From assembly GCF_963921235.1 (NCBI RefSeq), contig NC_086097.1, forward strand, positions 45,820,001-45,884,000: a DNA stretch of 64,000 bases, in the 5' to 3' direction. Position 1 is the stretch's first letter. The number at the start of each line of letters is the position of its first letter. The notes beneath the pieces are model-generated. The model made no database searches. It was given only the letters and a program-made list of their open reading frames with translations, and was not told where the DNA came from. This document shows, piece after piece, positions 2,576-61,542 of the stretch. This DNA comes from Mobula hypostoma. Its lineage: Eukaryota. Position numbers and translations under genes: made by a program.

Positions 2576-4085
2576 ATAGTCATAGTCATAGTCATACTAT
2601 ATTAATCCTGGGGGAAATTGGTTTTTGTTACAGTTGCTCCATAAATAATAACTAGTAATAGAACCATAAATAGTTAAATAGTAATATGTAAGTTATGCCA
2701 GGAAATAAGTCCAGGACCAGCCTATTGGCTCAGGGTGTCTGACCCTCCAAGGGAGGAGTTGTAAAGTTTGATGGCCACAGGCAGGAATGACTTCCTATGA
2801 CGCTCTGTGCTGCATCTCGGTGGAATGATTCTCTGGCTGAATGTACTCCTGTGCCCACCCAGTACATTATGTAGTGGATGGGAGACATTGACCAGGATGG
2901 CATGCAACTTAGACAGCATCCTCTTTTCAGACACCACCGTGAGAGAGTCCAGTTCCATCCCCACAACATCACTGGCCTTACGAATGAGTTTGTTGATTCT
3001 GTTGGTGTCTGCTACTCTCAGCCTGCTGCCCCAGCACACAACAGCAAACATGATAGCACTCCCACCACAGACTCGTAGAACATCCTCAGCATCGTCCGGC
3101 AGATGTTAAAGGACCTCAGTCTCCTCAGGAAATAGAGACGGCTCTGGCCCTTCTTGTAGACAGCCTCAGTGTTCTTTGACCAGTCCAGTTTATTGTCAAT
3201 TTGTATCCCCAGGTACTTGTAATCCTCCACCATGTCCACACTGACCCCCTGGATGGTAACAGGGGTCACCGGTACCTTAGCTCTCCTCAGGTCTACCACC
3301 AGCTCCTTAGTCTTTTTCACATTAAGCTGCAGATAATTCTGCTCACATCATGTGACAAAGTTTCCTACCGTAGCCCTGTACTCAGCCTCATCTCCCTTGC
3401 TGATGCATCCAACTATGGCAGAGTCATTCGAAAACTTCTGAAGATGACAAGACTCTGTGCAGTAGTTGAAGTCCGAGGTGTAAATGGTGAAGAGAAAGGG
3501 AGACAAGACAGTCCCTTGTGGAGCCCCAGTGCTGCTGATCACTCTGTCGGACACACAGTGTTGCAAGCACACGTACTGTGGTCTGCCAGTCAGGTAAACA
3601 AGAATCCATGACACCAGGGAAGCATCCACCTGCATCGCTGTCAGCTTCTCCCCCAGCAGAGCAGGGCGGATGGTGTTGAATGCGCTGGAGAAGTCAAAAA
3701 ACATGACCCTCACAGTGCTCACTGGCTTGTCCAGGTGGGCGTAGACATGGTTCAGCAGGTAGACGATGGCATCCTCAACTCCTAGTCGGGGCTGGTAGGC
3801 GAACTGAAGGGGATCTAAGTGTGGCCTGACCATAGGCCGGAGCAGCTCCAGAACAAGTCTCTCCAGGGTCTTCATGATGTGGGAGGTCAATGCCACTGGT
3901 CTGTAGTCATTGAGGCCGCTGGGGCACGGCATCTTCGGCACAGGAACGCGGCAGGACGTCTTCCACAGTACAGGAACCCTCCGGAGCCTCAGGCTCAGGT
4001 TGAATACATGGTGAAGTACTCCACATAGCTGAGGGGCACAGGCTTTGAGCACCCTGGTACTGACACCATCCAGTCCTGCAGCTGG
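2576..4085 (-). mobile_element. Rex1/Babar-like LINE, 5'-truncated, with (TATGAC)n tail
   Basis: ORFs 3348-4205, 3018-3320 and 2722-3051 give RT motifs (NDYRPVALTS, LQFAY, FFDFSSAFNTI, GAPQGTVLSPFLF, YKYLG). The 3' tail reads catagt repeats at 2576-2597. Confidence 0.9.
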
Positions 4086-4351
4086 ATGCCGGATAAAAAG
4101 AACGTAATAAATTCTGGTGAAAAATGCAGACATGTGGCAAATTTTATTCAAGAATTCTGAAATGATGTATTTGGACGTTAAAAATGGGATTTTCCAATAT
4201 GTCATGGATGCAGACTGAGGCAGGATTTAAAAAGGAGTTTTCAAAATGTTGGGTGGTGTGGGTGCTGGTGGAGGATGAAATCCTAAAAAGGAATGGACAG
4301 ATCAGAAGGCGGGGGGTGGGGGTATAAAAATACAAAGACAGATAGATTTGA

Positions 4352-4473
4352 GGGCCTTGGCCCGAAACGTCGACTGTACCTCTTCCTAGAGATGCTGCCT
4401 GGCCTGCTGCGTTCACCAGTAACTTTGATGTGTGTTGCTTGAATTTCCAGCATCTGCAGAATTCCTCGTGTTT
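4352..4473 (+). mobile_element. Penelope-like element 3' terminal fragment with partial hammerhead motif
   Basis: Same sequence as the terminus at 29411-29532. Flanked by a 14-bp direct repeat acagat(a)g/aatttga at 4338-4351 and 4474-4487 (1 mismatch). Confidence 0.8.
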
Positions 4474-7318
4474 ACAGATAAATTTGATTGGTGTTTCACA
4501 TTGAGGAACAGGAGAAGCAGAGGAAGCAAATCTCTCTCTTGTGGGGCACAGGAAAATAAAGTCTGGGGAACTCCGTGGAAAGCAGCATGAGCTACATGGT
4601 GCCGGTAATTATCACATTCAAGATGATAGAATCTGTCCACCTTGTCTTGCACTCAATTTGGAGCTGATTGCTGTGCAATTATCACCAAGCATTCCTGCTT
4701 CTATCCTTATGTTGTAGGGAGGCCTTTGATAAAAGCAGATAATAACTGGGGCCAGGTAGCATTGCTAAGGAATTACAGCACCATTGCAGGCTTAGGCTGT
4801 TAAAATAAATATTTTGGATCAATTCCATTGAAGTAGAGACAAAGTACAAAAGTGAATAAGTTAATCGTTTATAAATTACTGATTTGCCCCTAGCTGACGT
4901 ATGTGTTTAATTTTGAGTATGGTATTTAGTTAACAGGAATATCTAAGGTTCACTTTCACATATCCTGTATTTTACATATCTAAAGGTAATTATTTCCTTT
5001 TCTGGGGAGACCAGATAGTATTCAGCTGCAGACTTTATTATCTTCAGAGGCCCAAAGCAATTAGGCTGTCTGACACAAATATAGGCACCAGTAGATTGGA
5101 AGGTAGGGGGATATAGACCTGCCATCTTCTTGAGAAATAAACAGATGCCTTCTCATGTGTCCCCTGGCTGCACCTCTGCAATCTTATTTCTCTGTGTGTA
5201 AGTAAACGTCAGGAGTGATGAACTACTCTGGAAATTTCCGCCAACTCTTTCTCAAAAGATAAAATTACTAAGGGTCATGTGACAATAGTGTGTGCTAGCA
5301 TGAAAGCTGTCAAATTCCTCTGTATTCACAACTACCGTTTGCAAGTGGAGAGAGACGTGAAAGCACAGAGGAACATCTGGAGAAATTTCTGAAACGCAAG
5401 TTCGCCGCTGTTGTTACTGTGCGATTGAGAATCTTCCGGAGGGAAGGCCTCAAAATCCCCTTGATCTTTTGAAGTCTGTATCAGGGGGTGGGGGGGGGGA
5501 GGAATAGTGTGTTAATGATATTGTTGTGCGAAGATTAAAGTACGCACCCCGGTGAATGAGTAATTAGTAATCAGTGTGTGAAATGTGAGGAATAAAACAA
5601 TGTGTGAATATGAGGAAAGATGTTTGGGTGACCATTTAAGTGCCAGGCCAAATTGGAAACGTCAGGTCCAGGCTGAATCGAGACAGCGGGATTCAGGCCC
5701 CAGAGTGAAGTGAAGCGACTGAGCCTGATGACTGGACAACAATTTACGCACTGCGACAGACGGGAAAGGTTAGGGTGTCAGGGCCTGAGGTGAGGGACAG
5801 GCCGGTTTGTTCTGCTCTGCACTGAACAGAGGGTCTGTGGACGGACTCTCTTTCATGGAATTCAATTTGAAACGCTATTTTCTTGCTCCTATTGTTTGCC
5901 TGGTTTGTTTCCCCCCCCCCCACCCCCTGCACATTAGGTGTTTGACAGTCTTATTTTTAATGAGTTCTTTTGGGTTTCTTTGTTTTGTGGCTGCCTTTAA
6001 GGAGACGAACCTCAAAGTTGTTTGATGTATACATACTTTGATAATAAATGTACTTTGAACCTTCAGCAAAGAACACTGTAGAGACTGTAGAGGGATACAT
6101 TGTGCTTTGTGCAATTAGAGATGGTGGATATGAGAACGGAGACTAGAATGCTTTGAGGTCTGCAATCAAACAAGGGCAGTGCAGCCTGTACAACGAAATT
6201 GCTTTAATGAGGTCTCAGCACTGATTTCACGTTTTTGGGAGTAAACTAATTTCTGGGCCAACATGATGGATTGCCTTTAAGTCTGAAAGTAATCTAAGGT
6301 TGCATAGGTATCTCTAACTACTGCCTTTCTATTTTCTTATCTTAGGTTCCCCATGTATTTATTCTTTAGTTTGTATCCTTTTGAAAATGATATAGGAATT
6401 TTACTTGCCAGTGAATCAAAAGAAGTAAGAACAAACACCTAAATTTTCCACCATTAAAAATATAGTAAAATGTATTTCTTGTTCCAGATAACAACGGTCT
6501 GATATTTTTCAGTTTAATTACTCTGTTGATTATTTTAATTTGATCTACTTTGTTGTTGTGAGTCATAGCTTCGGAACCTATGACTTACTAAATTCCAAGG
6601 TTTTTACTGAAGTTTGAGCATTTAGTTTCGGGTTTTGCGGAAGTTTTTAAAATTGTGTTCCTGGAATACCTAACTGAAAACAAAGGCATATGAACGCAAC
6701 GTGCTAGAAATACTCATTATATTAGGTACAACCTATGGAGAATGAAAGGGAATATCACTTCAACACAACGAACCTTCATCAGAACTGGAACGATGGGAAA
6801 ATTAGCCGTTTTAAAATTGCACTAAGTGGAAGAAGTGGAGAAAACAGAGAAGATGCCTGTGACTGAGTGGAATTGAAGGTTCTTTCAGCTGTCCAAGTTG
6901 CTATGGTTGGTCAGTAGGAAAGGTCAGGTAGACCAACCTGAATTTGCAATCAATGCAAACAAAATGCTGGAGGAACTCAGTGGGTTAGGCAGCATTGATG
7001 GAGGAAAATGAACATCAATGAGACCATTTAACAGAACTGAGACTATTTATCAGAACTGAAAAAGAAAGAAGCAGAAGCCATAAGACATAGGAGCAGAATT
7101 AGGCTATTCGGCCCACCGAGTCTATCATGGCTGAGCCTGGATCCCATTCAACCCCATACACCTGCCTTCTCACCATATCCTGTGGTGCCCTGACCGATCA
7201 GGAAATGATCAACTTCCACCTTAAGTATAAGCAATGGACTTGGCCTCCACCGCAGTCTGTGGCCGAGCATTCCACAGATTTACCACTCTCTGGCCAAAAC
7301 AATTCCTCCTTCAGAAAT

Positions 7319-8197
7319 TCATCTTCAGAAGTTTTCGGATGACTCTGCCATAATTGGATGCATCAGCAAGGGAGATGAGGCTGAGTACAGGGCTACGGTA
7401 GGAAACTTTGTCACATGGTGTGAGCAGAATTATCTGCAGCTTAATATGAAAAAGACTAAGGAGCTGGTGGTAGACCTGAGGAGAGCTAAGGTACCGGTGA
7501 CCCCTGTTTCCATCCAGGGGGTCAGTGTGGACATGGTGAAGGATTACAAATACCTGGGGACACAAATTGACAATAAACTGGACTGGTCAAAGAGCACTGA
7601 GGCTGTCTACAAGAAGAGTCAGAGCTGTCTCTATTTCCTGAGGAGACAGAGGTCCTTTAACATCTGCCGGATGATGCTGAGGATGTTCTACGAGTCTGTG
7701 GTGGCCAGTGCTATCATGTTTGCTGTTGTGTGCTGGGGCAGCAGGCTGAGGGTAGCAGACACCAACAGAATCAACAAACTCATTCATAAGGCCAGTGATG
7801 TTGTGGGGATGGAACTGGACTCTCTCACGGTGGTGTCTGAAAAGAGGATGCTGTCTAAGTTACATGCCATCTTGGTCAATGTCTCCCATCCACTACATAA
7901 TGTACTGGGTGGGCACAGGAGTACATTCAGCCAGAGACTCATCACACCGAGATGCAACACAGAGCGTCATGGGAAGTCATTCCTGCCTGTAGCCATCAAA
8001 CTTTACAACTCCTCCCTTGGAGGGTCAGATACCCCGAACCAATAGGCTGGTCCTGGACTTATTTCATAATTTACTGGCATAATTTACATATTACTATTTA
8101 ACTATTTATGGTTCTATTACTATTTATTATTTATGGTGCAACTGTAATGAAAACCAATTTCCCCGGGGATCAATAATGTATGACTATGACTATGACT
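7319..8197 (+). mobile_element. Rex1/Babar-like LINE 3' fragment nested in a minus-strand CR1
   Basis: ORF 7446-8045 is near-identical to the copy at 2576-3447; (tatgac)n tail. Flanks 7080-7310 and 8198-8630 join into a continuous CR1 3' region. Confidence 0.9.
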
Positions 8198-24398: not shown

Positions 24399-24540
24399 AT
24401 GCCAACCATGATAGAGAAAGGGCCCGAGGTCTCGGGCAAGAGAAGAGGAAGGAATGGGGCTAAAAGTTTTGCGGGGGGAGCCGCGACCAATGGCAATAAC
24501 TCCTGGGAAGAGGCGAGCAGCGGTTCCGATGACGAGCACG
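24399..24540 (+). CDS. RCOR1: REST corepressor 1 (CoREST), coding exon 1
   Basis: Translates to MPTMIEKGPEVSGKRRGRNGAKSFAGGAATNGNNSWEEASSGSDDEH plus 1 nt. This matches the vertebrate RCOR1 N-terminus as I recall it (MPAMVEKGPEVSGKRRGRN...NSWEEGSSGSSSDEEH). GT donor at 24541, phase 1. Too short for the ORF track. Confidence 0.96.
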
Positions 24541-24655: not shown

Positions 24656-24712
24656 GTGGAGGAATGCGAGTTGGTTCGCAATATCAAGCAGTTGTCCCTG
24701 AATACGATCCCG
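24656..24712 (+). CDS. RCOR1: RCOR1 coding exon 2 (start of ELM2 domain)
   Basis: ttacag acceptor; reads (G)GGMRVGSQYQAVVPEYDP, the ELM2 signature MRVGxQYQAxVP; gtgagt donor at 24713; 57 nt, phase 1-1, in frame with exon 1. Confidence 0.97.
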
Positions 24713-26729
24713 GTGAGTTTTTTTTTGTTCTTTAATTCCGGCTTTTACATGTGTTGAAATAGCCTAAAACTCATCATCATTATCAACTCTCTCTCTTCCC
24801 CCCCCCCCACTTCTGTGTTTAATAGGTTAAGTTGAAATAGGGATCAGTGAAGGAGAGGGTAGGTGCGCGGGGGAGGGGGAGATTGGTCGGGTTCCTTTCT
24901 AGGTCACCGTGCGGAGTTAGTAAAGATGATAGAAAAGTATAAAACAGCAATTATAATAAAGCGAGAATAGATAAATAACTCACCCCCCCCCCCCCCTACT
25001 GTTCGCCCCGAGAATAGCAGCAATAGAAGCGTGTGCTGCGGGCGTGCTTTGACTTAAATCATCATTTCCTACCCCACCCTGGATAAAACTGAAATACTGT
25101 ACCAATCTTACTCGTATGTTCAAAAGTTTATAATTTAAAAGATCTTCATGCGTAATATTTCGCTATTTAGGTTATGCAATTTATCAAACTCTCTCCTCGT
25201 TTCAGGTGCGGTTACTTTCACATTCGGTGTGAATGAACCTGTTAAATATATTTGGTCTTTTAAGAAATACGATTTTATTTTCAGATTTGGGGTTGTTATA
25301 TCGTTCAATATCGGGTCGACAATGCGATTTTATTTCTAAATAAACTAAAGTGTATGTTGAAATCTGCATCATTTAACATTGGGCGCATGTGCAAGAAATA
25401 AAGCAAGAAGCCACTGCAAACGATGCTAAAGGTGTTTGCTATTGAACGTGCAAGACCGATTGTAATTAAAAGTTTATAAATGGGTGATCTTAGTTCCTTT
25501 TAAACGCGGTGCGCTGTTTTGGCTTGTAGGCCTTGTGTGTTAAGTATTCAGTGGGAAGCCTACCGCAAAATCTTTCAATTCAACAAGAAGTTGTTTAATG
25601 CAAATATTTCTGGTAGCTTTTTTCATTGGCAAGCAAGTTTGCAGTTTTCTCATAGTGGAGAAATTGGTTTATTACTTAAGATATGAGTATTCCAGAAGTT
25701 TGTTTAGAAAGTTGCTTCTTGGTCAATTATATTTTTATGCAAGGAAAATGATTATAAACCATATGATCTTAATTTATTTTTGTCACTTTGTGATGTAGGG
25801 TTTTTTTTAGTCACAATATGCTTTTTTTGCTAAATTGGGTGTATTTAAAATCAGAATTTTTCAAAAATGGTTTGAAATTTTTTGGAGGTTTTTGTTATTT
25901 TGAGAGAGGTTGTAATGTTATAGTTGTTGAAAACACTTAATTTACAATAAGCATTGCATAGTAATTTTATTAAAAACTGAGAAATGCATTGCATTGGAAT
26001 GTTTCTGTATGCCATTGGTGCTGGCTGGTTGGTCAAGGGTTTTTAATTAAACTGCTGGAAGGTGGACTGAATGAACTTGGGGAGGATCTGTAACTGACTA
26101 GAAGCTGGTGAATGTGGGACTTTGAAGCTGTGGAGATGGTGAGTTACATGAGGGGATAAGGATTCGGAAAAAATGCAGTAGTTATTTGGGGATTTGAAAT
26201 TGGTGGCAATCAGTGAGGCTTAAGTCATGCTGAGTGGGCTTTTGTGTGAAGGTAGATTATAATTGGTAGCAGTTTGAATGAGAGGCAGAATGGGAAGATG
26301 GTGGGTATTCGATTAGTCCAATTTGGAAGAGAGAAAGGCACTAAGGGATTTAGTGACAAACATGCCAATATCAGAGATGCTACTGGATTAGAAATGGATA
26401 TTATTTGTGGCTAAAAATAAATGGATGCTGAAGGGGGGGGGGAGTCATTGCTTGTGTGTGGGAGGGGGAGTTGGGGGGGCTTTGTGGATCTGTCATTTTA
26501 ATTGTCACTCATTCTTTGGGGACTCTTCTGTTTTCGTGGATGTCTGTGAAGAATAAGAATTTTGGGATGTATATTGCATGCAATTCTCTGATATTAAATG
26601 GAACTATTGATGTTTTGAACACTGGTGTAATCTGATACAGTTGATGACAAGCATAGTTTATGGTTAGATTCTTGGAAGACTTGTGACATAAAAGGAACAT
26701 GAGAAGCCAGCATGCTTTTCAGTATTAGC

Positions 26730-26906
26730 AACCACAGAAAATGCTGGAGGAATTCAGCAGGTCAGGTAAATGAATAGAAGCATCCTGAAGAAGGGTCTCG
26801 GCCTGAAATGTTGACTATATTCATTTCCATAGATACTGCCTAGCCTGCTGAGTTCCTCTAGCATTTTGTGTATATTGCTTTGGATTCGTCTGCAGACTTC
26901 CTTGTG
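26730..26906 (+). mobile_element. Short fold-back Penelope terminal remnant with decayed hammerhead
   Basis: Inverted arm (aaaatgctggaggaattcagcagg versus cctgctgagttcctctagcatttt); ctgaagaagggtctcggcctgaaatgttgact at 26785; 14-bp TSD ttttca(g/a)tattagc at 26716-26729 and 26907-26920. Confidence 0.78.
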
Positions 26907-27835
26907 TTTTCAATATTAGCTTGATTTTCTTTCCTTTCCATATGCACTCCATATTACATGCTTTCTGTAAATGTCATACGTCATCGTGTGCTTCTGCACA
27001 AATCCTTATTGCTTATTTGTAGATCCTTTGTTAACGTGAGCATTTGTACAGATATTGCAGTTGTGGTTATTGAGAATTTGAGTAAAATCCACGTGTGCGC
27101 CAAATAGGGCTAAATATTCATCAGGTGTATATACCTGAAGTTCTGTGCACTTTGCTAATACTTTTCGGGTAGTAAAACAACCAACACATTTCATGGGTAT
27201 TTCTAAGCAGCATTTGACACCAAGCCACTCAAGGAGGTTATCAGGGAAATTAGTCAAAATTGGATTTTTAATGACATCGTAAATGAAATAAAGACCTGAT
27301 AATGGGCCAGGAAGCCGGTGGCACCAGGCACAAATGTTAAAACAATTACATTTAGATGAGTGATGAAGGGATATGAAAACAAATTCTAATTGCTTTTAGA
27401 GCTTGGCTGTTTTGGCTGTTTGATAGGACCCAATTGTAGTTTGAGATCTCAAAAATTTTTAAATGTCCAGCACTGATTGGGTTTGGATTGACTGTGATTA
27501 GGTCAGGTTCAGATTGTATTATAATTTTTCTATACTATAGTAGAGAAGTTGTTTGCTTTTGCTAAGTTCATTCATCACAACAGTTTGAACTTGGGACTGT
27601 TCTTGTTTGTATCTCTTGAATTGACTTTATTACTCGCATCCTTCTAAATATGCAATTTATAGTAATTTATAATAAATAGTATGTGCAACAGGACAGTGAA
27701 AATCACTTGTTACTGGTTGCATAAGTTGCTTGAAGAAAGTTAGGGAGCCAACTTGAATTTTGATACAAGTTAGTTGTATGTGATAGTTTCTAGCCTGTAA
27801 GAAGCAGGCCAAGCAGCATCTGTAGGAAGAGGCGC

Positions 27836-27871
27836 AGTCGACGTTTCAGGCCGAGACCCTTCGTCAGGACT
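27836..27871 (-). ncRNA. Minimal type I hammerhead ribozyme motif (Penelope terminus)
   Basis: Reverse complement reads agtc-CTGACGA-agg-gtctcgg-cct-GAAA-c-GTC-gact. Confidence 0.8.
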
Positions 27872-28162
27872 AACTGAAGGAAGAGTGAGTAAGGGATTTG
27901 AAAGCTGGAGGGGGAGGGGGAGATGCAAAATGATAGGAGAAGACAGGAGAGGGAGGGATAGAGCCGAGAGCTGGACAGGTGATAGGCAAAAGGGGATATG
28001 AGAGGATCATGGGACAGGAGGTCCGGGAAGAAAGACGGGGGGGGTGACCCAGAGGATGGGCAAGAGGTATATTCAGAGGGACAGAGGGAGAAAAAGGAGA
28101 GTGAGAGAAAGAATGTGTGCATAAAAATGAGTAACAGATGGGGTACGAGGGGGAGGTGGGGC

Positions 28163-29017
28163 CTAGCGGAAGTTAGAGAAGTCAATGTTCATGCCATCAG
28201 GTTGGAGGCTACCCAGACGGAATATAAGGTGTTGTTCCTCCAACCTGAGTGTGGCTTCATCTTTACAGTAGAGGAGGCCGTGGATAGACATGTCAGAATG
28301 GGAATGGGATGTGGAATTAAAATGTGTGGCCACTGGGAGATCCTGCTTTCTCTGGCGGACAGAGCGTAGATGTTCAGCAAAGCGGTCTCCCAGTCTGCGT
28401 CGGGTCTCACCAATATATAAAAGGCCACATCGGGAGCACCGGACGCAGTATATCACCCCAGTCGACTCACAGGTGAAGTGTTGCCTCACCTGGAAGGACT
28501 GTTTGGGGCCCTGAATGGTGGTAAGGGAGGAAGTGTAAGGGCATGTGTAGCACTTGTTCCGCTTACACGGATAAGTGCCAGGAGGGAGATCAGTGGGGAG
28601 GGATGGGGGGGACGAATGGACAAGGGAGTTGTGTAGGGAGCGATCCCTGTGGAATGCAGAGAGAGTGGGGGAGGGAAAGATGTGCTTAATGGTGGGATCC
28701 CGTTGGAGGTGGCGGAAGTTACGGAGAATAATATGTTGGACCCGGAGGCTGGTGGGGTGGTAGGTGAGGACCAGGGGAACCGTATTCCTAGTGGGGTGGT
28801 GGGAGGATGGAGTGAGAGCAGATGTACGTGAAATGGGGGAGATGCGTTTAAGAGCAGAGTTGATAGTGGAGGAAGGGAAGCCCCTTTCTTTAAAAAATGA
28901 AGACATCGCCTTCGTCCTAGAATGAAAAGCCTCATCCTGAGAGCAGATGTGGCGGAGACGGAGGAATTGTGAGAAGGGGATGGCGTTTTTGCAAGAGACA
29001 GGGTGAGAAGAGGAATA
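28163..29017 (-). CDS. Penelope ORF C-terminal part: RT thumb region, Cys-rich linker, GIY-YIG endonuclease (5'-truncated)
   Basis: ORF 28163-28906 extends upstream in frame (YSSSHPVSCKNAIPFSQFLRLRHICS). Motifs PLVLTYHP, CKRNKCYTC, VIYCVRCSRCGLLYIGETRRRLGDRFAEH, EQHLIFRLGSLQPDGMN. No stops; RT core absent. Confidence 0.88.
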   Translation of the reverse strand, partial: YSSSHPVSCKNAIPFSQFLRLRHICSQDEAFHSRTKAMSSFFKERGFPSSTINSALKRISPISRTSALTPSSHHPTRNTVPLVLTYHPTSLRVQHIILRNFRHLQRDPTIKHIFPSPTLSAFHRDRSLHNSLVHSSPPSLPTDLPPGTYPCKRNKCYTCPYTSSLTTIQGPKQSFQVRQHFTCESTGVIYCVRCSRCGLLYIGETRRRLGDRFAEHLRSVRQRKQDLPVATHFNSTSHSHSDMSIHGLLYCKDEATLRLEEQHLIFRLGSLQPDGMNIDFSNFR

Positions 29018-29399
29018 GACTCAGGTTGGAGGGACAACACCTTATATTCCGTCTGGGTAGCCTCCAACCTGATGGCATGAACATTGACTTCTCTAACTTC
29101 CGCTAGGCCCCACCTCCCCCTCGTACCCCATCTGTTACTCATTTTTATGCACACATTCTTTCTCTCACTCTCCTTTTTCTCCCTCTGTCCCTCTGAATAT
29201 ACCTCTTGCCCATCCTCTGGGTCATCCCTCCCCCGTCTTTCTTCCCGGACCTCCTGTCCCATGATCCTCTCGTATCCCCTTTTGCCTATCACCTGTCCAG
29301 CTCTCGGCTCTATCCCTCCCCCTCCTGTCTTCTCCTATCATTTTGCATCTCCCCCTCCCCCTCCAGCTTTCAAATCCCTTACTCACTCTTCCTTCAGTT

Positions 29400-29435
29400 A
29401 GTCCTGACGAAGGGTCTCGGCCTGAAACGTCGACT
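29400..29435 (+). ncRNA. Minimal type I hammerhead ribozyme motif (Penelope terminus)
   Basis: Stem I agtc/gact; core CTGACGA at 29404-29410; stem II agg/cct with 7-nt loop; GAAA at 29424-29427; palindromic ACGT helix III; GUC triplet with predicted cut after 29431. Confidence 0.82.
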
Positions 29436-30080
29436 GCGCCTCTTCCTACAGATGCTGCTTGGCCTGCTGCGTTCACCAGCAACTTTGATGTGTGTTGCTT
29501 GAATTTCCAGCATCTGCAGAATTCCTGTTGTTTTTCTAGCCTGTAAGAGTTGGCTAAGAATTATGAGCTATTTAGTAGAACCAAGAATAGAATTTATTTT
29601 ACATTTAAATCTTCCTATAGGAAATTTTTTTGATTCTGTTTGGATTGAATTTTCCGAATTCGTTGTAGTATGACTCTCACTGTAATACAGTGACCTGGAA
29701 TACATTTTGGGTTTTAGGACCTAATTATGGTACCCTCATTAGTTATTGTAGGCCTTTGTTTTGTACATCTGGTAAATAAATGTGCAGCCAAATTTTGGAA
29801 ATCTTCAGATTCAGTAGATGTTACAAGTTTGAAATATTGCTTGAAATATAACTGCAGATAGAATAAATACCATTTTTTCCCCACTGAAGCAAACCCCTTC
29901 ATGTAACAATTTCACCTGCAATTAATTAATTGGTTGTAATGTGGCATTGTTAATTAAAAATATCTAAATTTTGAAAGACCACATTTAAACCTCTAAATGC
30001 TCAGTGAAACGTTTCGGAATGTAGCAGAGTTAAAATTACAAATATACGTTTGAGAGGATATCTAAATGTTTTTCATAGTA

Positions 30081-31209: not shown

Positions 31210-33725
31210 CTAAGCAGTCGCATCTTCAAGACTTATCCAGGCGGCTATCCCCACATGCTTCAAATTAGCCACTGTCATCGCTGTACCAAGAAACTCTACA
31301 TCTTCAGAACTAAATGACTACCGCCCGATGGCACTGGCACCAATCATCATGAAGTGCTTTGAATGACTGATAATGGCTCATATCACAAACTTAATTCCTG
31401 CCTCATTAGACACTCACCAATATGCTTACAGACAGAACCGCTTTATGACAGATGCCGTAGCATCTGTCATGCACCTGGCCCTGACACACCTAGAAAACAA
31501 GGACACTTGTGTCAGAATGTTGTTTCTGGATTTCAATTCGGCATTCAGCACTCAGCACTATTGTCCCACAGATCTTGGTGAGCCTACTCCTCACTCTAAA
31601 TACACCACTTTGCAACTGGGTGTTTGCAGTGCCCATTGCTGTACACTTTGCTCACACATGACTGCGTGGCCAAACACATCAATCATCACATCTTCTGATG
31701 ACACAACCGTGGTGGGGCTTATCACCAATAATGATGAGATGGCGTACAGAGATAAGGTGGAAGAGTTGCAGGCCTGATTCATGGTAAATAATCTCAAGAT
31801 CACCACATCTATATACTACTAAAACTCTCATGCTCTGTCTGTCTGTCTGTTTGTGACCTCCAATTAATGCAAACGGTGCATTACAGCGTCACTTTTTTTT
31901 GGCTGAATCGAATTAAAATGCGCTAACTTACAGAATGCAGGCAAAGTTCAGGGTTATATATTCGTATAAAATTGCTCATTCGCAAAAATCAACAGTCTCC
32001 CTTTGACCTGAGAGCCGATCCGTCATCATGGAAATTGGGACGCGATAGCCGGATGCATGAGCACGGCCAGCCTCAGCAGTGACACCTACTGGAGCAAAAG
32101 GGCAAGGCAGCTGTATTTCGAGGGGTCACATTCTGCTAATCACCATCAGCATGTGCAGGATTGGGACAGATCTAACTGCCACCCATCAATAAGAGATAAT
32201 TAAATCTTATTGTAATGATGTACTTTGAGACACCCATAAAACCCTTTGCTGCAGTCAAAGGACAGCGGTGACTATATCACGTCCATTTAGAAGAGCGCCA
32301 ACCACATCATCAAGAATAATCAGCATCCTTTGGTGTAACTGCTTCGTATCTTCTATCCAGCATTAGGGTAAAAAAAAATGGTCAGCCTAATTATGCTGCG
32401 TGGAAAGGGAAGGGGGACATTATGGTCAAGAGGTGACGCCAAACGTCATTGGGAAGTGGCAAGGAGAGGGAGAGAACAAGAATCAGATGAGGCCAGGGCC
32501 GCACGACTCCAGGATCAAAGAGTCAGGACAAAAAAAGTGAGAGAAGAAGAGACAGAGAAGGAGAGGCATGCACGTCTCCAGGATCAGAGACAAACAACAA
32601 ACAGCAGAAGAGATGAAGAGATGGGGTTGAAAGGACTGCACGTCTCCAGATTGACAATGAGAGGCACAAGGGTGGCAGATAAACCAGAAATGATGCCATC
32701 AAAAGTGTCCTTTGTTAAATAAGGAGCAGCCATATTTGCTTTGCTATGCATCGTTCTTCTTTAATAAACTGAGGTTTTCTACTTCAGTTTCCAAGCAAAG
32801 CGATACCAATAGCATTCAGGAAAATTTAATGTTCATTCTGGTCACATCAGACTGCACTACCCTTCTCTGAAAGGATGCCCCAACGGGTCACCCCGTTGTC
32901 TAGTTTCATTCGAAGTTTCACTGTTGATGTTGCCTTGCAGACATTTTGTTACCCAGCAAGCTAACAAGCCATCGGCAAGCCACTCATCAACAGCATCCTC
33001 AACCCGAGCTACAAACCTCTATATCAACAAGACAAAAGGAGATGGTTATCAACATCAGGAGAACTTGCACCACTCACACCCCCTTCTTACATTGGTGCAC
33101 ATCACACCCAAGCTCTCATGGTCCCAGAACACATCCAACATAGTCCAGAATGTTCACTAGCTATTTGTTTGGGGAGGCTGCAGAGAGCTGGACTTCGCAC
33201 TTCCATACTCGCATAATTCTACAGACGCATAGCTGCATCCCTGCTTGGTACAGAAACTGCCCTACGTTGGGCAGGAAGGCTCGACAATGGGTAGTCAAAA
33301 CTGCCCGAAGCATCGAAACCATCTGCCATCAAACACTGAAAGGTTCTAGAAAAGAGCCAGTAATATGAAGGATCTCACCAACCCTGTTCCCACTCCCGTC
33401 AGGGAGGAGATTGAGTCACATCTACACCAGGACCATCAGACTCAAAAACAGTGTCCCCAAGTAGTAATGGTGATCTGTACTTCCACTCACTAAACCCACT
33501 GCTATTTTATTATTTCCTATCTGTCACCTTATCTACAGCCTAGTGAAACTTTATGGACTTGCAATCAATCTTTGTATATAAGCTATCTTTTGTATTTACA
33601 TTGTGTTTTTAATTATTATTGTTTTTTTTCTTTAGTTTTTTTTGTGCTGCATTGGGTCCAGGGTAACAACTATTTTGTTCTTCTTTACACTTGTGTGCAG
33701 GAAATGACATTAAACAATCTGAATC
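31210..33725 (+). mobile_element. Degenerate Rex1-like LINE interrupted by a Helitron
   Basis: ORF 31373-31777 (QYAYRQNR, MLFLDFNSAF, DDTTVVGLI). RT homology resumes at ~33015 (INKTK) and continues to a 3' tail near 33720. Confidence 0.78.
31808..32903 (+). mobile_element. Non-autonomous Helitron with both termini intact
   Basis: 5' A|TCTATATACTAC; 3' hairpin caacggg-tcac-cccgttg (32881-32898) then CTAG|T; A|T target and no TSD. Internal ORF 32378-32722 has repeats ARAARLQDQR / ERHARLQDQR. Confidence 0.9.
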
Positions 33726-41751: not shown

Positions 41752-42596
41752 CTGCCACTCTTGTACCTCTCATTGTCATTCTGGAGACGTGCAGCCCTTT
41801 CATCCCCCGTCTCTTCATCTCTTCTGCTGTTTGTTGTTTGTCTCTGATCCTGGAGACGTGCATGCCTCTCCTCCTCTGTCTCTTCTCTCATCTTTTTTTG
41901 TCTTGACTCTCTGATCCTGGAGTTGTGCGGCCCTGGCCTCCTCCGATTCTTGTTCTCTCCCTCTCCTTGCCGCTTCCCGATTTGGCATCATCTCTTGACC
42001 ATAATGACCCCCTTCCCTTTCCACGCTGCATAATTCGGCAGACCATTTTTTTTTACCCTAATGCTGGATAGAAGATACAAAGCAGTAACACCAAAGGATG
42101 CTGATTATTCTTGATGATGTGGTTGGCGCTCTCCTAAATGGATGTGACAGTCACCACTGTCTTTTGACTGCAGAAAAGGGTTTTATGGGTGTCTCGAAGT
42201 ATGTCATTACAGTAAGATTTAATTATCTCATTGATGGGTGGCAGTTAGATCTGTCCCAATCCTGTACATGCTGATGGTGATTAGCAGAATGTGACCCCTT
42301 GAAATAGAGCTGCCTTGCCCTTTTGCTCCAGTAGGTGTCACTGCTGAGGCTGGTCGTGCGCATGCATCCGGCTATCGCGTCCCGATTTCCATGATGACGG
42401 ATCGGCTGTTGGGTGAAAGCCAGCCTGTTGATTTTTGGTGAATGAACAATTTTATACGAATATATAACTCTGAACTTTGCCTGCATTCTGCAAGTTAGCG
42501 CATTTGAATTTGACTTAGCCAAAACAAGTGCCGCTGTAATGCACCGTTTGCGCTAATTGGAGGTCACAGAGTATGAGAGTTTTAGTAGTATATAGA
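41752..42596 (-). mobile_element. Non-autonomous Helitron, 5' TC terminus intact, 3' end missing
   Basis: Reverse complement of 31808-~32680; ends gtagtatataga at 42596; ORFs 41815-42024 and 41655-41891 carry the same RLQDQR repeats. Confidence 0.88.
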
Positions 42597-44440
42597 TTGT
42601 AATGACATACTTTGAGACACCCATAAAACCCTTGCTGCAGTCAAAGGACAGCAGTGACTATATCACGTCCATTTAGGAGAGCGCCAACCACATTCTCAAG
42701 AATAATCAGCATCTTGGAGGCTTTGGTGTTACTGCTTCCTATCTTCTATCAAGGATTAGGGTAAGAATATATGGATAGCCTAATTATGCTGAGTGGAAAG
42801 AGAAGGGGGACATTATGGTCAAGAGATGACGCCAAACATCGTCGGGAAGCGGCGAGGAGAGGGAGAGAACAACAATCAGATGAGGCCAGGGCCGCACGAC
42901 TCAAGGATCAAAGAGTCAGGACAAAAAAGATGAGACAGAGGAGGACAGGCATGCATGTCTCCAAAATGACAACAATAGGCACAGATGGAGGAGAGAACAA
43001 GAATCTGATCAGGCCAGGGCCACACGACTCCCAAGATCAGAGAGAAAGAACAAATGGTAAAAGGGATGAAGAGACAAAGGATGAAAGGGCTGCGTGTCTC
43101 CAGAATGACAAAAACAGGCAGAGGAGGAGAGAGGAAGAGCCAGAGGTGCTTGGTGGTAGGACAGCGCAATCACGATTCAAAATACCCCTCAAAGTCAATG
43201 AGGATGCCCTTTGTAACATAGATAAAAACACCAATACTGCAAATTTACTCCAAAATGCAAAGCTCATTGTCTGGGATGAGTGCCCCATGATTAGGAGGGA
43301 GAGCTTTGAAGCCGTGGACCACACTCTTCGTGACGTATGCGGCAAGAATGAGGCCTTCGGGGGTATTTTAACCATTTGCTGTGGCGATTTCCGTCTGCTT
43401 CTAGCAGTTGTGAAATGCAGAAATGATGCTGATGTGGAGAATTCATTAAAAAATCCTACTTATGGAGAAGCTTCATCAAGTTTCAATTGAAGAGAAACGT
43501 GATTGAGTGAGGGAGAAGGAGGATATTCTCAGTTCTTATTGGATGTTGGAGAAGACAAGATTGAGAAAAATGAAAACAATGAAATCAAATTACCTGAAGA
43601 TATGATTCTGCCAGCAACAACTATGGAAGAATGCATTGATTTCATTTACCCGACATTCTACAATCCTGCAGAACTCTTCTCGAGGAATTCTATCATGGTT
43701 CCTCTTAATGAAAATGAAGTATGATGCGAAAAATAAACTTCACATGCATTAGACACTTCCTTGGAATCATGAAAGAATACTGCTCCTTCAATGCCGTAAG
43801 TGAAGGAGCGAACACCACTTATTTTCCTACAGAATTCCTTGATTTGGTCAAACTCTCTGGATTGCCACCGCAGGAACTGGAATTGAAGAGGGGATCTCCC
43901 ATCATTTCAATGAGGAACTTGGATCCACCAAGGCTTTGCAATGGAACGTGAATGATGGTGGAAGAACTGCACAACAATCTCATCGTAGCAAAGATAAACA
44001 TTGGTACATTCAAAAAATAATTTTGTCATTATCCCAAGAATTACTCTCAATTTATCAGAAGGGGAAAATGTCCCTCCTCAGCGGAGCCAGTTCCCGATAC
44101 AGTCATGCTTTGTTACGACTATACATTCGGCTCAAGGCCAAACCATGGAGAATGTTAATTTATTTGGAGAAATCAGTATTCCCGCATGGTCAGCTGTATG
44201 TGGCTTTAAGCCGGGGAAAAAGAAATGAAAATGTTAGAGTATTCCTGAAGGGTGGCAGATCAACCAGAAATGTGGTCATAAAAAGTGTCCTTCGTTAAAT
44301 GAGGGGGAGCATTATTTGTCTTGCTAGGTGTCTTTCTTCTTTAATACAGTGAGTTCTTCTTTAATTTCCAAAGCACATCACATCACACTGTACTCCCTTT
44401 CTCTGAAAAGGTGCCCCCAACGGGTCACCCGGTTGTCTAG
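42597..44440 (+). mobile_element. Helitron deletion derivative with decayed PIF1-family helicase and intact 3' end
   Basis: GGRTAQSRFKIPL, LIVWDECPM, FGG...GDFR, FPTEFL, GLPPQELELK, MRNLDPPRLCNGT, FPIQ...TTIHSAQGQT and HGQLYVALSR across frameshifted ORFs 42771-44298. 3' hairpin then CTAG|T at 44437-44441. Confidence 0.92.
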
Positions 44441-46640: not shown

Positions 46641-47131
46641 GGGTGCAGATAATTGGAATCATTAAAGGAGAGTTGAAGGGCAGAGCTTGTATGGTGGGCG
46701 AAATATGTTTATAGTAGTCAATGGAACTGGGAGATGGTTGAAAATGGGTGTTGGTGGGGGGGGGGGAAGGTATTTATGAGGAAACAGAAAGAAAGGAATG
46801 ACACAATGTGAATTGAATCCAGGCTTCAAGATCCTGTGAGGTGCTAGGTGTACTAGCTGTAGCACTTTGTCTTTCACAAACCCAGGGAAGGGGAGACTTA
46901 GAGGCAGAGAACAGGTAACTGCTTTTACAGATGTGGTTGGTCTGTATAATGTATTACTGAATTCTGCTTTCATTTGCCAAAATTCCTCCCCATTCAGCAT
47001 GATCCTAGAATGCGAGGGTAAACGACTTAAGTAGGGTATCTGTTTAAATTCCTGTTTCCTCTACTTGATTTTGCAAGAACAAGTATAAGGAACTTGTGAT
47101 TTTAGTTACTAGGAATGAGGGCATCCTAACA

Positions 47132-47293
47132 CAAACAAGAGGAATTCTGCAGATGCTGGAAATTCAAGCAACACACATCAAAGTTGCTGGTGAATGCAGC
47201 AGGCCAGGCAGCATCTCTTCCTAGGTGCTGTACCTCTTACTAGAGATGCTGCCTGGCCTGCTGCGTTCACCAGCAGCTTTGATGTGTGTTGCT
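47132..47293. mobile_element. Minimal hairpin insertion made of two inverted Penelope termini
   Basis: Arms 47164-47218 and 47242-47296 with a ~23-nt loop; 16-bp direct repeat tgagggcatcctaaca at 47116-47131 and 47294-47309. Confidence 0.87.
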
Positions 47294-48159
47294 TGAGGGC
47301 ATCCTAACAGTTGCCTTTGTCTCTGGAGCCAAACTTTCCCTAACTTTATTGCTCTGAGCTTGTCTTGTCTCTTGATTTTATTCCTATAAATGTCGTGCCC
47401 ATTAGTTTTCATTCAGACTCTTTGTTAATAGTTCTTTTTCCCTCCAAAGTTCTCTTTCTCACTGAATGTAGTCCCTTCCATGTTTGTTTGTTTGTTTTTT
47501 TGTGAATCACACATTCAGATTTCTGCCTCTGCCAGAGATGGTTGACTATGCCGTTCTTCCCTACCTCACTGGTATGATCTGGATGAGTCACTCACACTTT
47601 CCTTTTTCTTTCTCATCTATTCAAGTTGGAGAACACTGAGAATGGCTTCTGACCCCACTGCATTTTGGTGTCACTCAAAAATCTATCCCTAACACCTCCT
47701 ATTTTCTATCCAGATTTAGCTAGTTAAAGCATCTTCAGAAAACATTTCAGTTCTGGCATGTTTTATTCAGGAAACTCAATGCCCCTTTTAGATTGATGTC
47801 TCAATGTGGTCAAACTTTATTGAACCTATGGGACTGGATGATTAGAAATTTTCTATAGCTATGCAGTTGTGACAAAGACAACCTATTCTTCCAATTGTGG
47901 CCTAGTTCTAGCTTTACGTATCCAAAGGTAGCAGAAATATTGCCTGTTTGGTTATTTATAATGGCACAAGTTGATTACAGCATTGAATGAGGTTTATTGA
48001 GTCTGTATTGGATTATGTAAGATCAATCAGTCTTTCTCCTTACAAATCCCATCCTTCCAGGTACTTGGTCAGTTTCTTTGCAATCAAATGGGACTCCACT
48101 ATGACTTCCCTTGAGTATATTCCAGGTAATATTAGTAAGTGCCAAAGGTTATTCCTCCA

Positions 48160-50203: not shown

Positions 50204-52161
50204 TCAACCATTATCAAGCTACACCTGCTAAATATCAGGCCTTTCAACATAACAGGAATTCTGGACACCTGAATTCTCTTTTCTTTCCAAGTATCAGCTG
50301 CAAAATAATTTGTAAAGTAATTCTTATTATGTATTTATCTCCAAGGGTTACCATTTATATCAATCAACCTTGGATTCCATTATGTAATGAAATTTCATTC
50401 ATTTTCTAGTCTGGCCTGTTGACTCAATCAGCTTAATAGTCATGAACTCCCAAAAGATTTGTAGGAAAATAATATTTGTAAGGATATGGAAAGAATCATA
50501 ATGATTGCATAATCCCAGATATGCTTACAGTTGTATTCAGATGGTTGTTCATGGGTTGCTTCTGTAAAAACAGCCAGTGCTAAATGGGTATCTATCTGTG
50601 CTGACCATGAATGCAAGGAATCAGGTGTCGAATGTTTTCCTGCATCTCCCATGATGACTCCATTATCTCACCAACAAGTTGCCCCAATTCTGACCTTTGC
50701 CAGCGTGGCAAACCAGGAATCCCTGAATATTTAGCAGTGATTTCAAGTATCTCACAAAGTTTAGATGATAAATGGAAACAGAAGGTCACCTTAAACTTCA
50801 TTGTGAGAGGCTAAGTGGCTTGCTTTCATCCCTTGTTAAAAATTATTTTTGAGGCAAAGCCCTGAGGGACAGAAGATTCAGCTGGAAAATATTTTATATC
50901 AGCTGTACTACATAAGCTTGACCTATTGTATAATTTCAATGTACAATCCTTCAGAGTGTACATCATTAAAACAATTGCAAGTGGAGTACCAAAATAATGA
51001 ACACCCTTGTCGGGTGAGTTGAATACACTTCTGTGCCTTCTGTTTTTTTGGGGGGGGGAGAAAAAGAGATGCTTTGAAACTCCTCTGGTAGTAGTCTTCC
51101 ATATTATGTTCAAATCTGATGTCCTGCCGGTGGGGAGAGGAGACAAGAATATTTGTGCATCTCAGGTGCTCGCTTCAATTTATTCCATGATCTTCACCAC
51201 CCAATCAACTTGGGTGTTGTGTCTTTTTGCCATTATAGCCAAAAAATAGTTTTAGAAGGGACTGTGGTTTGGATTATTTGCATTTTTAACCCAATTATAA
51301 GACATCTTGTTTTCCCTGATTGAGTGCCAGCAAGAGAAAGCTTTGCCCCCAGAAGGTGCTAATTACAATCAAGTGGAAATTCATGGGGATGTTCTTGCAT
51401 TTTCTGATATGCTCATCTGCGAAAGGCTCTGCTTTAGAAAGCAAAATAAAATTAAAAGCTTTCTGATGTTTTTATCAACCCGAGGTGACCAATTACTCAG
51501 TGGCCCAGATTTTCCAAGCAATTTTAGTAGCAGCTGGATTTCTGCTTCTTCTGACACATGGGGCAGGAAATTCTTTGTTTCTGGCAGTTTTTAAAGTACT
51601 CATGAGTATCTTCAGGCTGAGTGGCTTTGGTGGTCCAGTGCGCCCTTTTTACCTTCAAGTGGTGATAAATGCTCACAGTAAATGAAAATCAAAAGGTACA
51701 CTGCAGATGCTGGAAATCTGAGACAAAAACAGAAAACAAAAGGTCACAGACCTGAATGTTGGCTGTTTCTCTTTCCGCAGATGCTGTGTGACTGGCTATG
51801 TTTTCCAGCGTTCTCTGTTTTAATAAGTGTTAGCAGGTAGGGCTGTTCTATCTCAAATCCTTGACCTACACCACAAGAGGGCAGTAGGAGCATTAAACAC
51901 AGTTAACTCCCAAATTCTAACGGTGGTTGACATCTTGACTTGGAGCAGTATTATTCATTATTGCGCAACTGTCATTTGGTCAAGATTCTGCGCATCATAA
52001 TGGTGGGAGAATATTTTTCTTTGATTGTTGGGGATGGACCAGAAGTGCTGCCTTTTTTATGGTAGATATCCCTTGCATGAATAAAAGCAGAATATCTAGT
52101 TGTAATCATACAAATTTTTATTGGAGCATGCCGTACACAAAAAATTGCTGCTACATCTTTA

Positions 52162-57599: not shown

Positions 57600-58900
57600 T
57601 TTGCTTGCTTCAGTGACACTCCCAACCCTTGCCTCCATCTGGATCTAATCTTGCTAATCAGCTCTCACCATTCCACCTGGCACTGGCACTTCCTTACAGG
57701 TTTCGCCATCGGCAGTTCACTCTCACTTTACACAGATCTATCATCAGTATTGCCTTGTCTTGTGTATTCAGTGCCCTCAATATGGCCTCGACATCAAGCC
57801 AGCCACTTTGCTGAGCACCTGAGCTTTGTCCACAATGGTCATTTTGAGCTCCCAGTTGCATGCATTTCACCTCCCATCCCCATTCCCACATTGATTTGTT
57901 TGTCCTTGGCTTCTTCCTCTGCCACAGTGAGGCCACAGAGGAGAGGAACTACTCTGTACGGGTAGTCTTCAATCAACTAGTATAAATATTTAAAAATTTT
58001 CGGATAACTACACCAGATCCTTCTTTGCCAGTCTTCTTACACACTCTTCTTTTTGCCCTCTCCTCTACACCATTCTCTTTCCCCTTCCCCACATGGCTCC
58101 AACTCTCTAACCCTCATTTGTGGCCTCATTGTGGCAGTGGAAGAGTCAAGAACAGCCCATGCCATTGTGGGAATGGGGAGGGGAGATAAAATGGTTTGCA
58201 ACTGGGAGATCAAGATGGCCATTGCGGAGGAAGCTGCCTATTGTCCATACACTTTACCCATTTGATCTCCCATTGCTCCGGTTTTTTGTCCATCCCTTAT
58301 CTGGTTCCACTCGCCACCTTCCGTATCAGATTCCATCATGTGCAGCTCTTTGTATCTACTAATCTCCATCCAGCTTCTATCACTACCTCCTCTTCTCCTT
58401 TCGAACAGAGTTGCGGAAAAACTTTTTCACCCAGAGAGTGGTGGATGTATGGAAGTCTCTGGATGCTTTCAAGAAAGAGATGGATAGAGCTCTTAAAGAT
58501 AGCGGAATCAAAGGATATGGGGACAAGGCAGGAACTGGATACTGATTGTGGATGATCAGCCATGATCACAGTGAATGGCGGTGCTGGCTCGAAGGGCCGA
58601 ATGGCCTACTCCTGCACCTATTGTCTATTGCCCCATCTGGCTTCATCTGCCCATTAACCTCTCCTCAGCTGTATACCTGTTGCTTGCCAGCTCTTGCCCC
58701 CAGCTAGACTTCTTTTTGTGCTGATGAAGCTTGCCAATAACCAAGGGGTCTGTGGACCTCAGGCTGGGAGCCCATGCCCTAGTCTCTCTATAGTGGCCAT
58801 CTCGTCTTAGCACACTATCCAGCTACAGGGTTTTGTCCCAGCATTTCAGCCATCATTTTGCATCCACAGATTCTGCCTAACCTGCTGAATTCTGCCAGTG
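57600..58900 (+). mobile_element. Cluster of decayed Penelope fragments with a nested CR1 3' end (58400-58630)
   Basis: GIY-YIG remnants (FAEHL in ORF 57651); 58400-58630 matches the CR1 terminus at 36042-36290. Confidence 0.65.
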
Positions 58901-60028: not shown

Positions 60029-60967
60029 AATGCAAATAAAAGTAAATTATTTATATTTTGTCAAAATGAAACTTTGATCCCCCTGTAAAGGCGATCTTTG
60101 GCACTTCATTGTTTATATAAACTTACTCTATCAAGCCACCAGATATTGCAATGGCAATGCAATATTTTACCATTTAATATATAAATCCTTTGATTATAAT
60201 TAATCTCACATCTTTACCCTGGTTGCAAAGTAATTCTGTGCTGTCTAGTGTAGCAGCAGCAGAAAGAAACTGTTTCACTACATTTCGGTGTATATTTTGT
60301 GTTTTAGGCATAATCAATCAGTTGTGCTCATTTGCTGATTGTGTAGAAATCTATCAACTTTTTTTAAATTTCAAATAATTGACTACTTTTGTCAGTTGAG
60401 AAACTTGTGGTCAGACTCAATTACAGCAGATGGCAAAATATTAGCCATATAAGATAAATGCTGGAATCTGGTGCAAAAACCAAACTGCCAGAGGAGCTCA
60501 GCATCTCAAGCAGCATTTTGGGAATGAAACGGACAGTTGCATTTTGGGTTGTGACCCTTCATTTGCTCTGGAAAAATAGAGGAGAGTTGGCCAGTATAAA
60601 GAGGTGAAGGGAAAGATGCACCATGAGCTGGCAGGGTGATCAGTGGATCTAGGTGAGGGGAAGAGAGGATATAGCAACAGAAGCTAGGAGATGATAAGTG
60701 AAGGCTACAAAGGGTTGCATACGATGGGAAGAGGAAGGACATTTGAGAATCGTTGGAGTGTGTGTGGGTGAAAGGGGGAAAAAGAACCAGGTGATAAAAG
60801 CCTGGGGAGGTGGAGTGGGCATAGGAGGATCTAGGTAGATCAGGAGGAGAGAGAAGGGACAGAGAAAGAGCAAGTTACCTGAAACTGGAGAATTTATTAT
60901 CCAACCAACATACACAAAAAATGCTGGTGAATGCAGCAGGCCAGGCAGCATCTCTAGGAAGAGGTAC

Positions 60968-61003
60968 AGTCGACGTTTCAGGCCGAGACCCTTCGTCAGG
61001 ACT
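60968..61003 (-). ncRNA. Minimal hammerhead ribozyme motif
   Basis: Identical to 27836-27871. Confidence 0.8.
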
Positions 61004-61506
61004 AACTGAAAGAAGAGACAGTAAGAGATTTGAGAGGGGGAGGGGGAGATCAGAAATGATAGGAGAAGACGGGGGGAGGGATAGAGCTATGAGCTGGACA
61101 ATTGATTGGCAAAAGGGATATGAGAGGATCATGGAACGGACGGGAGGCCTAGGGAGAAAGAAAAGGGGAGGGGGGAAGCCCAGAGGATGAGCAAGGAGTA
61201 TACTGAGAGGGACAGAGGGAGAAAAAGGAGAGAGAGAGAGAGAAAATTAATAATAATAAATAACGGATGGGGTACGAAGGAGAGGTGAGGTAACAGAAGA
61301 ACGGAACTTAGAGAAGTCAATGTTCATGCCTCTGTCCCTCTCACTATACTCCTTGCCCATCCTCTGGGCTCCCCCCCCCACTTCTCTCTCCCTAGGCCTC
61401 CTGTCCCATGATCCTCTCATATCCCTTTTGCCAATCAACTTTCCAGCTCTTAGCTCTATCCCTCACCCTCCTGTCTTCTATCAGGAAGCTATCTGTTCTT
61501 TCAATT

Positions 61507-61542
61507 AGTCCTGATGAAGGGTCTCGGCCCGAAACGTCGACT
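61507..61542 (+). ncRNA. Minimal hammerhead ribozyme motif
   Basis: agtc-CTGATGA-a-ggg-tctcgg-ccc-GAAA-c-GTC-gact; predicted cut after 61538. Confidence 0.8.

Follow-up and report, generated by a model that had tools for sequence, protein, structure and literature searches.

The stretch analysed here, referred to below as the window, comprises 64,000 nt of Mobula hypostoma contig NC_086097.1 (assembly GCF_963921235.1, positions 45,820,001 to 45,884,000). At positions 27787-29548 of the window, downstream of two coding exons of an RCOR1-like gene, lies an insertion of 1.7 kb which consists of two fragments of one Penelope-like element (PLE), joined head-to-head with their 3' ends outward and flanked by a target site duplication (TSD). 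The parts of the insertion and the two exons are listed below (ORF, open reading frame; UTR, untranslated region; pLTR stands for pseudo-long terminal repeat and RT for reverse transcriptase).

27787-27802, no strand: left TSD copy, 16 bp, an exact repeat of 29533-29548
27803-29018, minus strand: long half without tail, 1216 nt, a 5'-truncated PLE fragment with the end of the ORF and the 3' UTR/pLTR; family contigs run past 29018 into more ORF
27803-28250, minus strand: inverted arm on the left, 448 nt, ending 64 nt before the family 3' end is reached
27836-27871, minus strand: hammerhead motif of minimal type I, in antisense orientation relative to the host transcript (motif scan), mirroring 29400-29435
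28163-29018, minus strand: C-terminal third of the PLE polyprotein, with the region following the RT, a Cx4Cx2C linker and a GIY-YIG domain with CCHH residues (Pfam, relatives, alignment)
28251-29018, minus strand: spacer, 768 nt, the ORF portion exclusive to the long half
29018/29019, no strand: blunt head-to-head inversion junction (loose ends of contigs)
29019-29532, plus strand: short tailed half, 514 nt, with the last ORF codons, 3' UTR/pLTR and tail
29021-29072, plus strand: element hairpin with a 12-bp stem, starting 2 nt inside the inversion junction (fold z=-2.47)
29399-29436, plus strand: minimal type I hammerhead motif in the sense of the host transcript (core scan 29400-29435; sequence, motif scan and folding); helix I 29399-29403/29432-29436, core from 29404, helix II 29412-29423; helix III a palindromic 4 nt without loop and predicted cut after 29431, by analogy with motifs described in parts of PMC4209133
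29469-29532, plus strand: one-sided 3' tail, 64 nt (about 34 nt in neighbouring copies), bounded by the family 3' end at 29533
29533-29548, no strand: right TSD copy, 16 bp; a contig match of organism C, a relative, begins at 29533
24399-24540, plus strand: first coding exon of the RCOR1-like gene, boundaries from ATG and GT, in frame with the next exon, without Pfam match
24656-24712, plus strand: second coding exon of the RCOR1-like gene, start of ELM2 (Pfam ELM2, 25.2 bits, above cut-off)

An earlier reading of the letters alone (hereafter the sequence-only reading) had proposed a perfect 16-bp TSD and near-identical arms of about 450 bp around a 768-bp spacer, and both hold. The exact direct repeat touches both ends of the insert and exceeds a chance control, in which the best repeat with at most one mismatch was never longer than 12 nt in 400 random pairs of 50-nt zones of the window. 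By self-comparison, the arms (27803-28250, 448 nt, and 29019-29468, 450 nt) are 98.67% identical over 450 columns and differ by 3-4 substitutions and two additional bases within a C-tract (5-6 positions in all), while the right arm is extended by 64 element bases that have no counterpart at the left arm. Contigs of public runs, among them the DNA run X1, were mapped onto a 2550-nt stretch around the insertion, and copy statistics are drawn from these contigs and from the window. The family 3' end is set by 288 loose ends of X1 contigs, which leave at 29533, and loose ends of family contigs at 29018 and 29019 reveal how the family continues on each side of the inversion junction. Compared with this continuation, the junction is blunt: the halves have no base in common there, and none has been inserted. 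A joint of opposite strands between 28251 and 29019 was rejected as junction evidence, since it reflects how the element itself runs on across the stretch's edge.

The minus-strand frame 28163-29020 is open for 285 amino acids from stop to stop, as claimed previously, and comprises 284 element codons. It has no start codon at its 5' end, which is the truncation point, and its first codon straddles the inversion junction. Pfam matches GIY-YIG with E=1.4e-4 and 22.5 bits, just under the cut-off of 22.6, and a search among longer proteins yielded 18 relatives from 1372 candidates, the best being a zebra shark protein (62%); the RVT_1 accession is present in 7 of the 18. The assignment to a Penelope-type insertion with a GIY-YIG frame is borne out by the Pfam match and these RT-endonuclease relatives. 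Alignment with 6 of the 18 relatives (7 rows) places the fragment in the C-terminal third of an RT-endonuclease polyprotein of 800-900 amino acids; the YIDD motif of the RT lies upstream of the fragment in five of the six relatives, and the RT core is absent from the copy. Family contigs extend in register beyond the 5' truncation point. Invariant in all seven rows are the CCHH and catalytic-type residues (Y190, C194, C197, Y201-G203-E204-T205, H216, H232, E261 and N277); so are the first two cysteines of the linker, which in the translation precedes the C-terminal GIY-YIG domain as Cx4Cx2C. A Cx2-5CxxC linker ahead of a C-terminal endonuclease is given as a mark of Neptune and Nematis in parts of PMC8557442, and Neptune and Poseidon are the vertebrate PLE clades reported in the portion available of bioRxiv 10.64898/2026.07.22.740005. 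The copy resembles the Neptune-clade PLEs of PMC8557442 in the linker, in its position upstream of the C-terminal GIY-YIG domain and in the CCHH residues.

An autonomous PLE has a complete RT-endonuclease ORF behind an upstream pLTR promoter; here 284 codons are present and the RT core is absent. Judged from its sequence, the copy is dead-on-arrival, doubly 5'-truncated and incapable of its own transposition, and the open frame of 850 nt is what would be expected of a young fragment. The family, in contrast to this copy's unique flank, which lies under single contigs with a depth of about 7, is very large and has young members: 212,039 X1 contigs fall on the mapped stretch, 47,359 of them at 99% identity or more, totals that do not represent a copy number.

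The second exon of the host gene matches a REST corepressor 1 chain (E=6.1e-6) and REST corepressor 3 (E=2.8e-4). Together with the ELM2 start this agrees with the suggestion that the insertion lies in an intron of a chromatin regulator, of the CoREST family. The insertion is located 3075 nt downstream of the second-exon donor, from which we infer a position in 'intron 2'; exon 3 was not found by a short-motif scan.

The sequence-only reading treated the inverted geometry as special. This is not supported: it is the published PLE layout, and the window contains three more TSD-flanked head-to-head copies, at 26716-26920 (TSD 14 nt with one mismatch, 177 nt inside the TSDs), 47116-47309 (16 nt exact, 162 nt) and 60890-61657 (14 nt with one mismatch, 740 nt). 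All three belong to the same or a related PLE family and carry a tail at one side only; three other candidate zones in the window lack a convincing TSD. Parts of PMC3846280 describe PLE copies flanked by inverted pLTRs with TSDs of 9-10 bp and an optional tail on one pLTR, with head-to-head as the most frequent inverted arrangement, and the same inverted layout is given for PLEs generally in sections of PMC8557442 and PMC8969392. With the endonuclease-positive PLE insertions treated in PMC3846280 and PMC8557442 the copy shares the head-to-head ends, the one-sided tail, the outer TSD, the 5' truncation and the hammerhead in the terminal repeat. It differs from the examples given there in its TSD (16 bp versus 8-10 bp in rotifers), in its longer tail, in the absence of a direct pLTR-ORF-pLTR tandem and in retaining no more than the final third of the ORF. 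The short end falls at about 29499 in the copies at 47 and 61 kb, which leaves a tail of about 34 nt, within the published range.

Several further observations concern PLE copies and inverted repeats in the window. The short end of the focal copy (27803) lies 31 nt further inside the element than those of its neighbours at 47293 and 60904, and yet the four letters before it, TGCT, also precede the short end found at 47 kb; this shift may reflect a third RT start site or trimming during repair. The 47-kb copy itself has a complex junction with short repeated pieces and a few shared letters. A non-inverted PLE 3' fragment of 122 nt at 4338-4487, with a 14-nt TSD containing one mismatch, lies within a long interspersed nuclear element (LINE) and starts inside hammerhead helix II. 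At 57803-58235 two short, old PLE ORF fragments stand tail-to-tail, the reverse of the arrangement normally seen. The window has many long inverted repeats: LINE-type RT fragments of about 870 nt at 2578-3447 and 7319-8197 are inverted, 91-96% identical and 3.9 kb apart, and an inverted repeat of about 450 nt (41758-43126 and 42765-44295) overlaps a PIF1-like helicase fragment (Pfam E=2.9e-29). The latter region is possibly a decayed Helitron-type element, to which a stretch at 32372-32719 may be related.

With respect to age, a 636-nt contig of organism C matches the window from 29533, the first TSD base, and 119 unlike letters precede the match. Element sequence would have aligned further, and the site therefore appears empty in organism C, from which the flank differs at 18 of 517 and 25 of 614 letters (about 4%). 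Organism B differs at 17 of 638 flank letters, and its run (X5) gives almost no cover at 29611-30035, next to the insertion. An empty allele was not seen among the X1 contigs, which can show presence, not absence. The insertion is thus probably younger than the split from organism C, and the recent activity proposed by the sequence-only reading stands in the sense of a lineage-young insertion. A very recent event, on the other hand, is not supported by the 5-6 differences between the arms, unless the templates differed. The arms diverge at no more than 4 of 448 positions (0.9%, 95% interval 0.24-2.3%), a value that gives no absolute age, as they were possibly non-identical at the start. The ratio of observed to expected CpG is 0.55 in the frame, 0.32 in the window and 0.15 in an old copy at 39 kb; retention of CpGs, also advanced as a sign of recency, is thus real but a weak sign of youth that adds little, because the local flanks reach 0.43-0.44 as well. 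Template editing as a source of the two A>G differences of the right arm (sense strand) was dropped, with n=2 and both being common transitions.

A motif scan detected a hammerhead-type core at 29400-29435 on the plus strand and at 27836-27871 on the minus strand, so that the earlier statement of one hammerhead per strand is correct at the level of the motif. The identification is a motif-level one because Rfam showed no hammerhead match at gathering score in the window, or at E<=10 in 27700-29650, where three unrelated chance matches were obtained. The core boxes, helix I, helix II and the palindromic minimal helix III of a minimal type I hammerhead are all present. Helix I has 4-5 bp, the short helix II is closed by G.U or A-U and not by G-C, and a four-base palindrome replaces helix III; the pair G10.1-C11.1 does not form, position 11.1 being U (29423) in both arms. 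By its sequence and by analogy with described motifs, the motif is of the minimal, dimer-dependent type without a helix III in the monomer. Metazoan PLE hammerheads of minimal type I, as presented in parts of PMC4209133, likewise have the core boxes, a helix I of 4-5 bp, an extra base before helix II and palindromic positions 15.2-16.2 without loop 3. They differ in their conserved G10.1-C11.1 pair, in contrast to the helix II of 3-4 bp with G.U or A-U closing found here (the copy at 61511 has C). Opposite-strand pairs of minimal hammerheads are already noted in the same source, at distances of 100-700 bp, whereas about 1.5 kb separates the two motifs here. Downstream of the exon, the remaining motifs on the same strand are located at 26785 and 41660, both with a broken helix I, and at 61511; the nearest intact same-strand partner is thus 32 kb distant and a tandem partner is absent at the insertion. 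According to sections of PMC4209133, the single minimal hammerhead tested showed no detectable cleavage in vitro and dimers or trimers showed little, and of the Xenopus retrozyme dimers tested, as far as described, one out of nine cut. The hammerhead of an Anolis PLE, in the account given in parts of PMC11167929, cut only with protein and was dispensable for insertion.

Folding of the whole insertion as plus-strand RNA gives -1235 kcal/mol, and 447 of 450 right-arm bases, hammerhead included, pair with the left arm. Without the left arm, helix I has a probability of 0.001-0.003 when folded in three native contexts, since the core is taken up by pairing with upstream bases in a local hairpin; in a bare 43-mer the value is 0.92-1.0, and helices I and II form while part of the core is still mispaired. 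The duplex of about 450 bp put forward by the sequence-only reading is therefore predicted, and on paper it sequesters the hammerhead, but the hairpin is predicted to close the core even without the antisense arm. Long intronic inverted repeats generally undergo ADAR editing, inverted Alu pairs being comparable as an intronic inverted repeat and a substrate of double-stranded RNA (dsRNA), and by this analogy it is plausible that the duplex in the host pre-mRNA is edited to some degree. In run X10, an RNA run by guess, the unique right flank is uncovered; A>G and T>C changes occur at 12 and 15 places compared with 13 and 14 in the DNA run X1, numbers which are dominated by other family copies in both runs and are uninformative.

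Taken together, we read the insertion as a 5'-truncated copy of a high-copy, Neptune-type PLE in an RCOR1-like intron with the standard layout of its group, at a probability of roughly 0.9. Several points weigh against this reading. The assignment to Neptune follows from the linker motif and the host group and not from a tree, and Nematis has the same linker; with the short end at 29468, the tail measures 64 nt and exceeds the 30-40 nt given in the literature; the empty site in organism C is deduced from where a match starts; the inversion junction is bridged by none of the listed contigs, and where an X1 contig covers the right junction, just 22 of its letters fall within the element, fewer than the tool's 31. 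The lack of a bridging contig would also be expected if the inversion were an artefact of assembly or library, and PLE repeats are known to cause assembly trouble (PMC8557442, in part). Such an artefact is nevertheless hardly credible: the arms are distinct at 5-6 positions, the TSD is exact at both ends with its first base marked independently by a relative's contig, and three further copies in the window show this layout and a one-sided tail, with TSDs that differ. It is also very improbable, if slightly less so, that the inverted geometry was retained as an off-switch for the hammerhead in the RCOR1-like pre-mRNA or as regulatory dsRNA. The predicted duplex does pair the hammerhead with its antisense copy, the antisense arm would, by sequence order, be transcribed first on the host strand, and a PLE hammerhead can cut when aided by the element's protein, as parts of PMC11167929 report. 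However, a lone motif without monomer helix III was uncut and dimers were weak in the experiments cited above, Xenopus dimers included, and the same-strand motifs are broken or, at 61511, remote. Given the minimal motif, the distant partner and the closure of the core by its local hairpin, there would be little activity for the antisense arm to switch off. Moreover, the geometry is the default of the family, and a relative with about 4% divergence appears to have an empty site. The proposal that the geometry neutralises the ribozyme is thus unsupported; we regard the duplex as a by-product that shows no sign of a selected function, and the hammerheads as passengers of the 3' repeat.

As to the origin of the inversion, the two halves of the insertion hold mutually exclusive content, the long half lacking the 64-nt tail and the short half the 768-nt spacer, and the same holds for three of the four TSD-flanked inverted copies of the window. 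The final 10 bases of the long half show no pairing with the sequence adjoining the arm. These two observations speak against a literal fold-back, which needs one arm to be a copy of the other and pairing at the turn, and the term 'fold-back' used by the sequence-only reading is not supported as a mechanism. The mutually exclusive halves and the blunt junction fit priming from both target strands, and we consider it somewhat more probable than other routes that two separately target-primed cDNAs were joined head-to-head, which is the best fit. The GIY-YIG endonuclease of the element would cut both target strands 16 nt apart, and each free 3' end would prime reverse transcription on sense element RNA, the one starting internally at the family 3' end and the other 64 nt further in. 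The cDNAs would stop after 514 and 1216 nt and be joined blunt, end to end; because the arms overlap, the templates would have to be a pair of RNA copies or two repeats within one tandem transcript. In the parts of PMC11167929 concerned, the purified protein of a PLE cuts both strands of the target, extends them and initiates at two internal positions in the RNA, which set the limits of the tail. Two observations fit this double priming less well, namely the copy at 26.7 kb, whose tailed half contains all of the other half, and the hairpin with a 12-bp stem, which starts 2 nt inside the junction as a self-priming model has it and for which chance is not an adequate dismissal. That the same element was inverted by snap-back self-priming at a palindrome or on an antisense template is unlikely, though far from negligible. 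Palindromes at inverted junctions are described, and self-priming on antisense template is proposed, for rotifer copies in parts of PMC3846280, and the complex junction of the 47-kb copy with a few shared letters could be counted in its favour. Yet the 64-nt tail cannot come from snap-back of the long half, nor the 768-nt spacer from snap-back of the short one; the end of the long half is unpaired as stated above; and a turn at the hairpin would give a loop of about 28 nt instead of 768.

Among known systems, twin priming of L1 produces an inversion inside the TSD with non-overlapping halves and one 3' end. The insertion resembles it in the inversion within the TSD and differs in having halves with a 448-nt overlap, each of which ends close to the element's own 3' end. 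An old head-to-head pair at 51684-51825, without a clear TSD, has halves that map to adjacent, non-overlapping parts of the element end, an arrangement as single-template twin priming would yield. Another is the Poseidon PLE of Anolis (PMC11167929, in part), which has a one-sided tail explained there by two internal start sites; we offer its cutting and extension of both strands, with the hammerhead unneeded for insertion, as a parallel. The clade differs, the inverted layout is not a subject of those parts, and the short end here is displaced inward by 31 nt relative to neighbouring copies. A literature search that left most subscription journals uncovered found no work on double priming in PLEs or on these elements in elasmobranchs; for twin priming of inverted Penelope-like copies and for A-to-I editing of Penelope inverted repeats by ADAR it gave a single human review in each case.

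In summary, the observation of the inverted insertion was accurate, the insertion is of a known kind, and its regulatory reading is unsupported. As a single locus it carries little weight, being one of very many insertions and having no coding capacity for transposition. A bolder idea, for which we see very little chance, is that PLE hammerheads cut host pre-mRNA with the help of PLE protein and that introns preferentially keep head-to-head copies, in which the antisense arm covers the motif. If true, the inverted layout would act across the genome as a safety filter and would give ADAR a large supply of intronic dsRNA in elasmobranchs, with this RCOR1-like intron as one of several cases; an enrichment of introns for inverted over direct copies, which nothing here shows, would point to a new host filter on ribozyme-bearing elements. 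The insertion is useful as a clean specimen for studying the way in which head-to-head copies of PLEs are made. Its 64-nt tail may mark a third start site, and the abundance of the family would allow a survey of one assembly to decide between double priming and self-priming.

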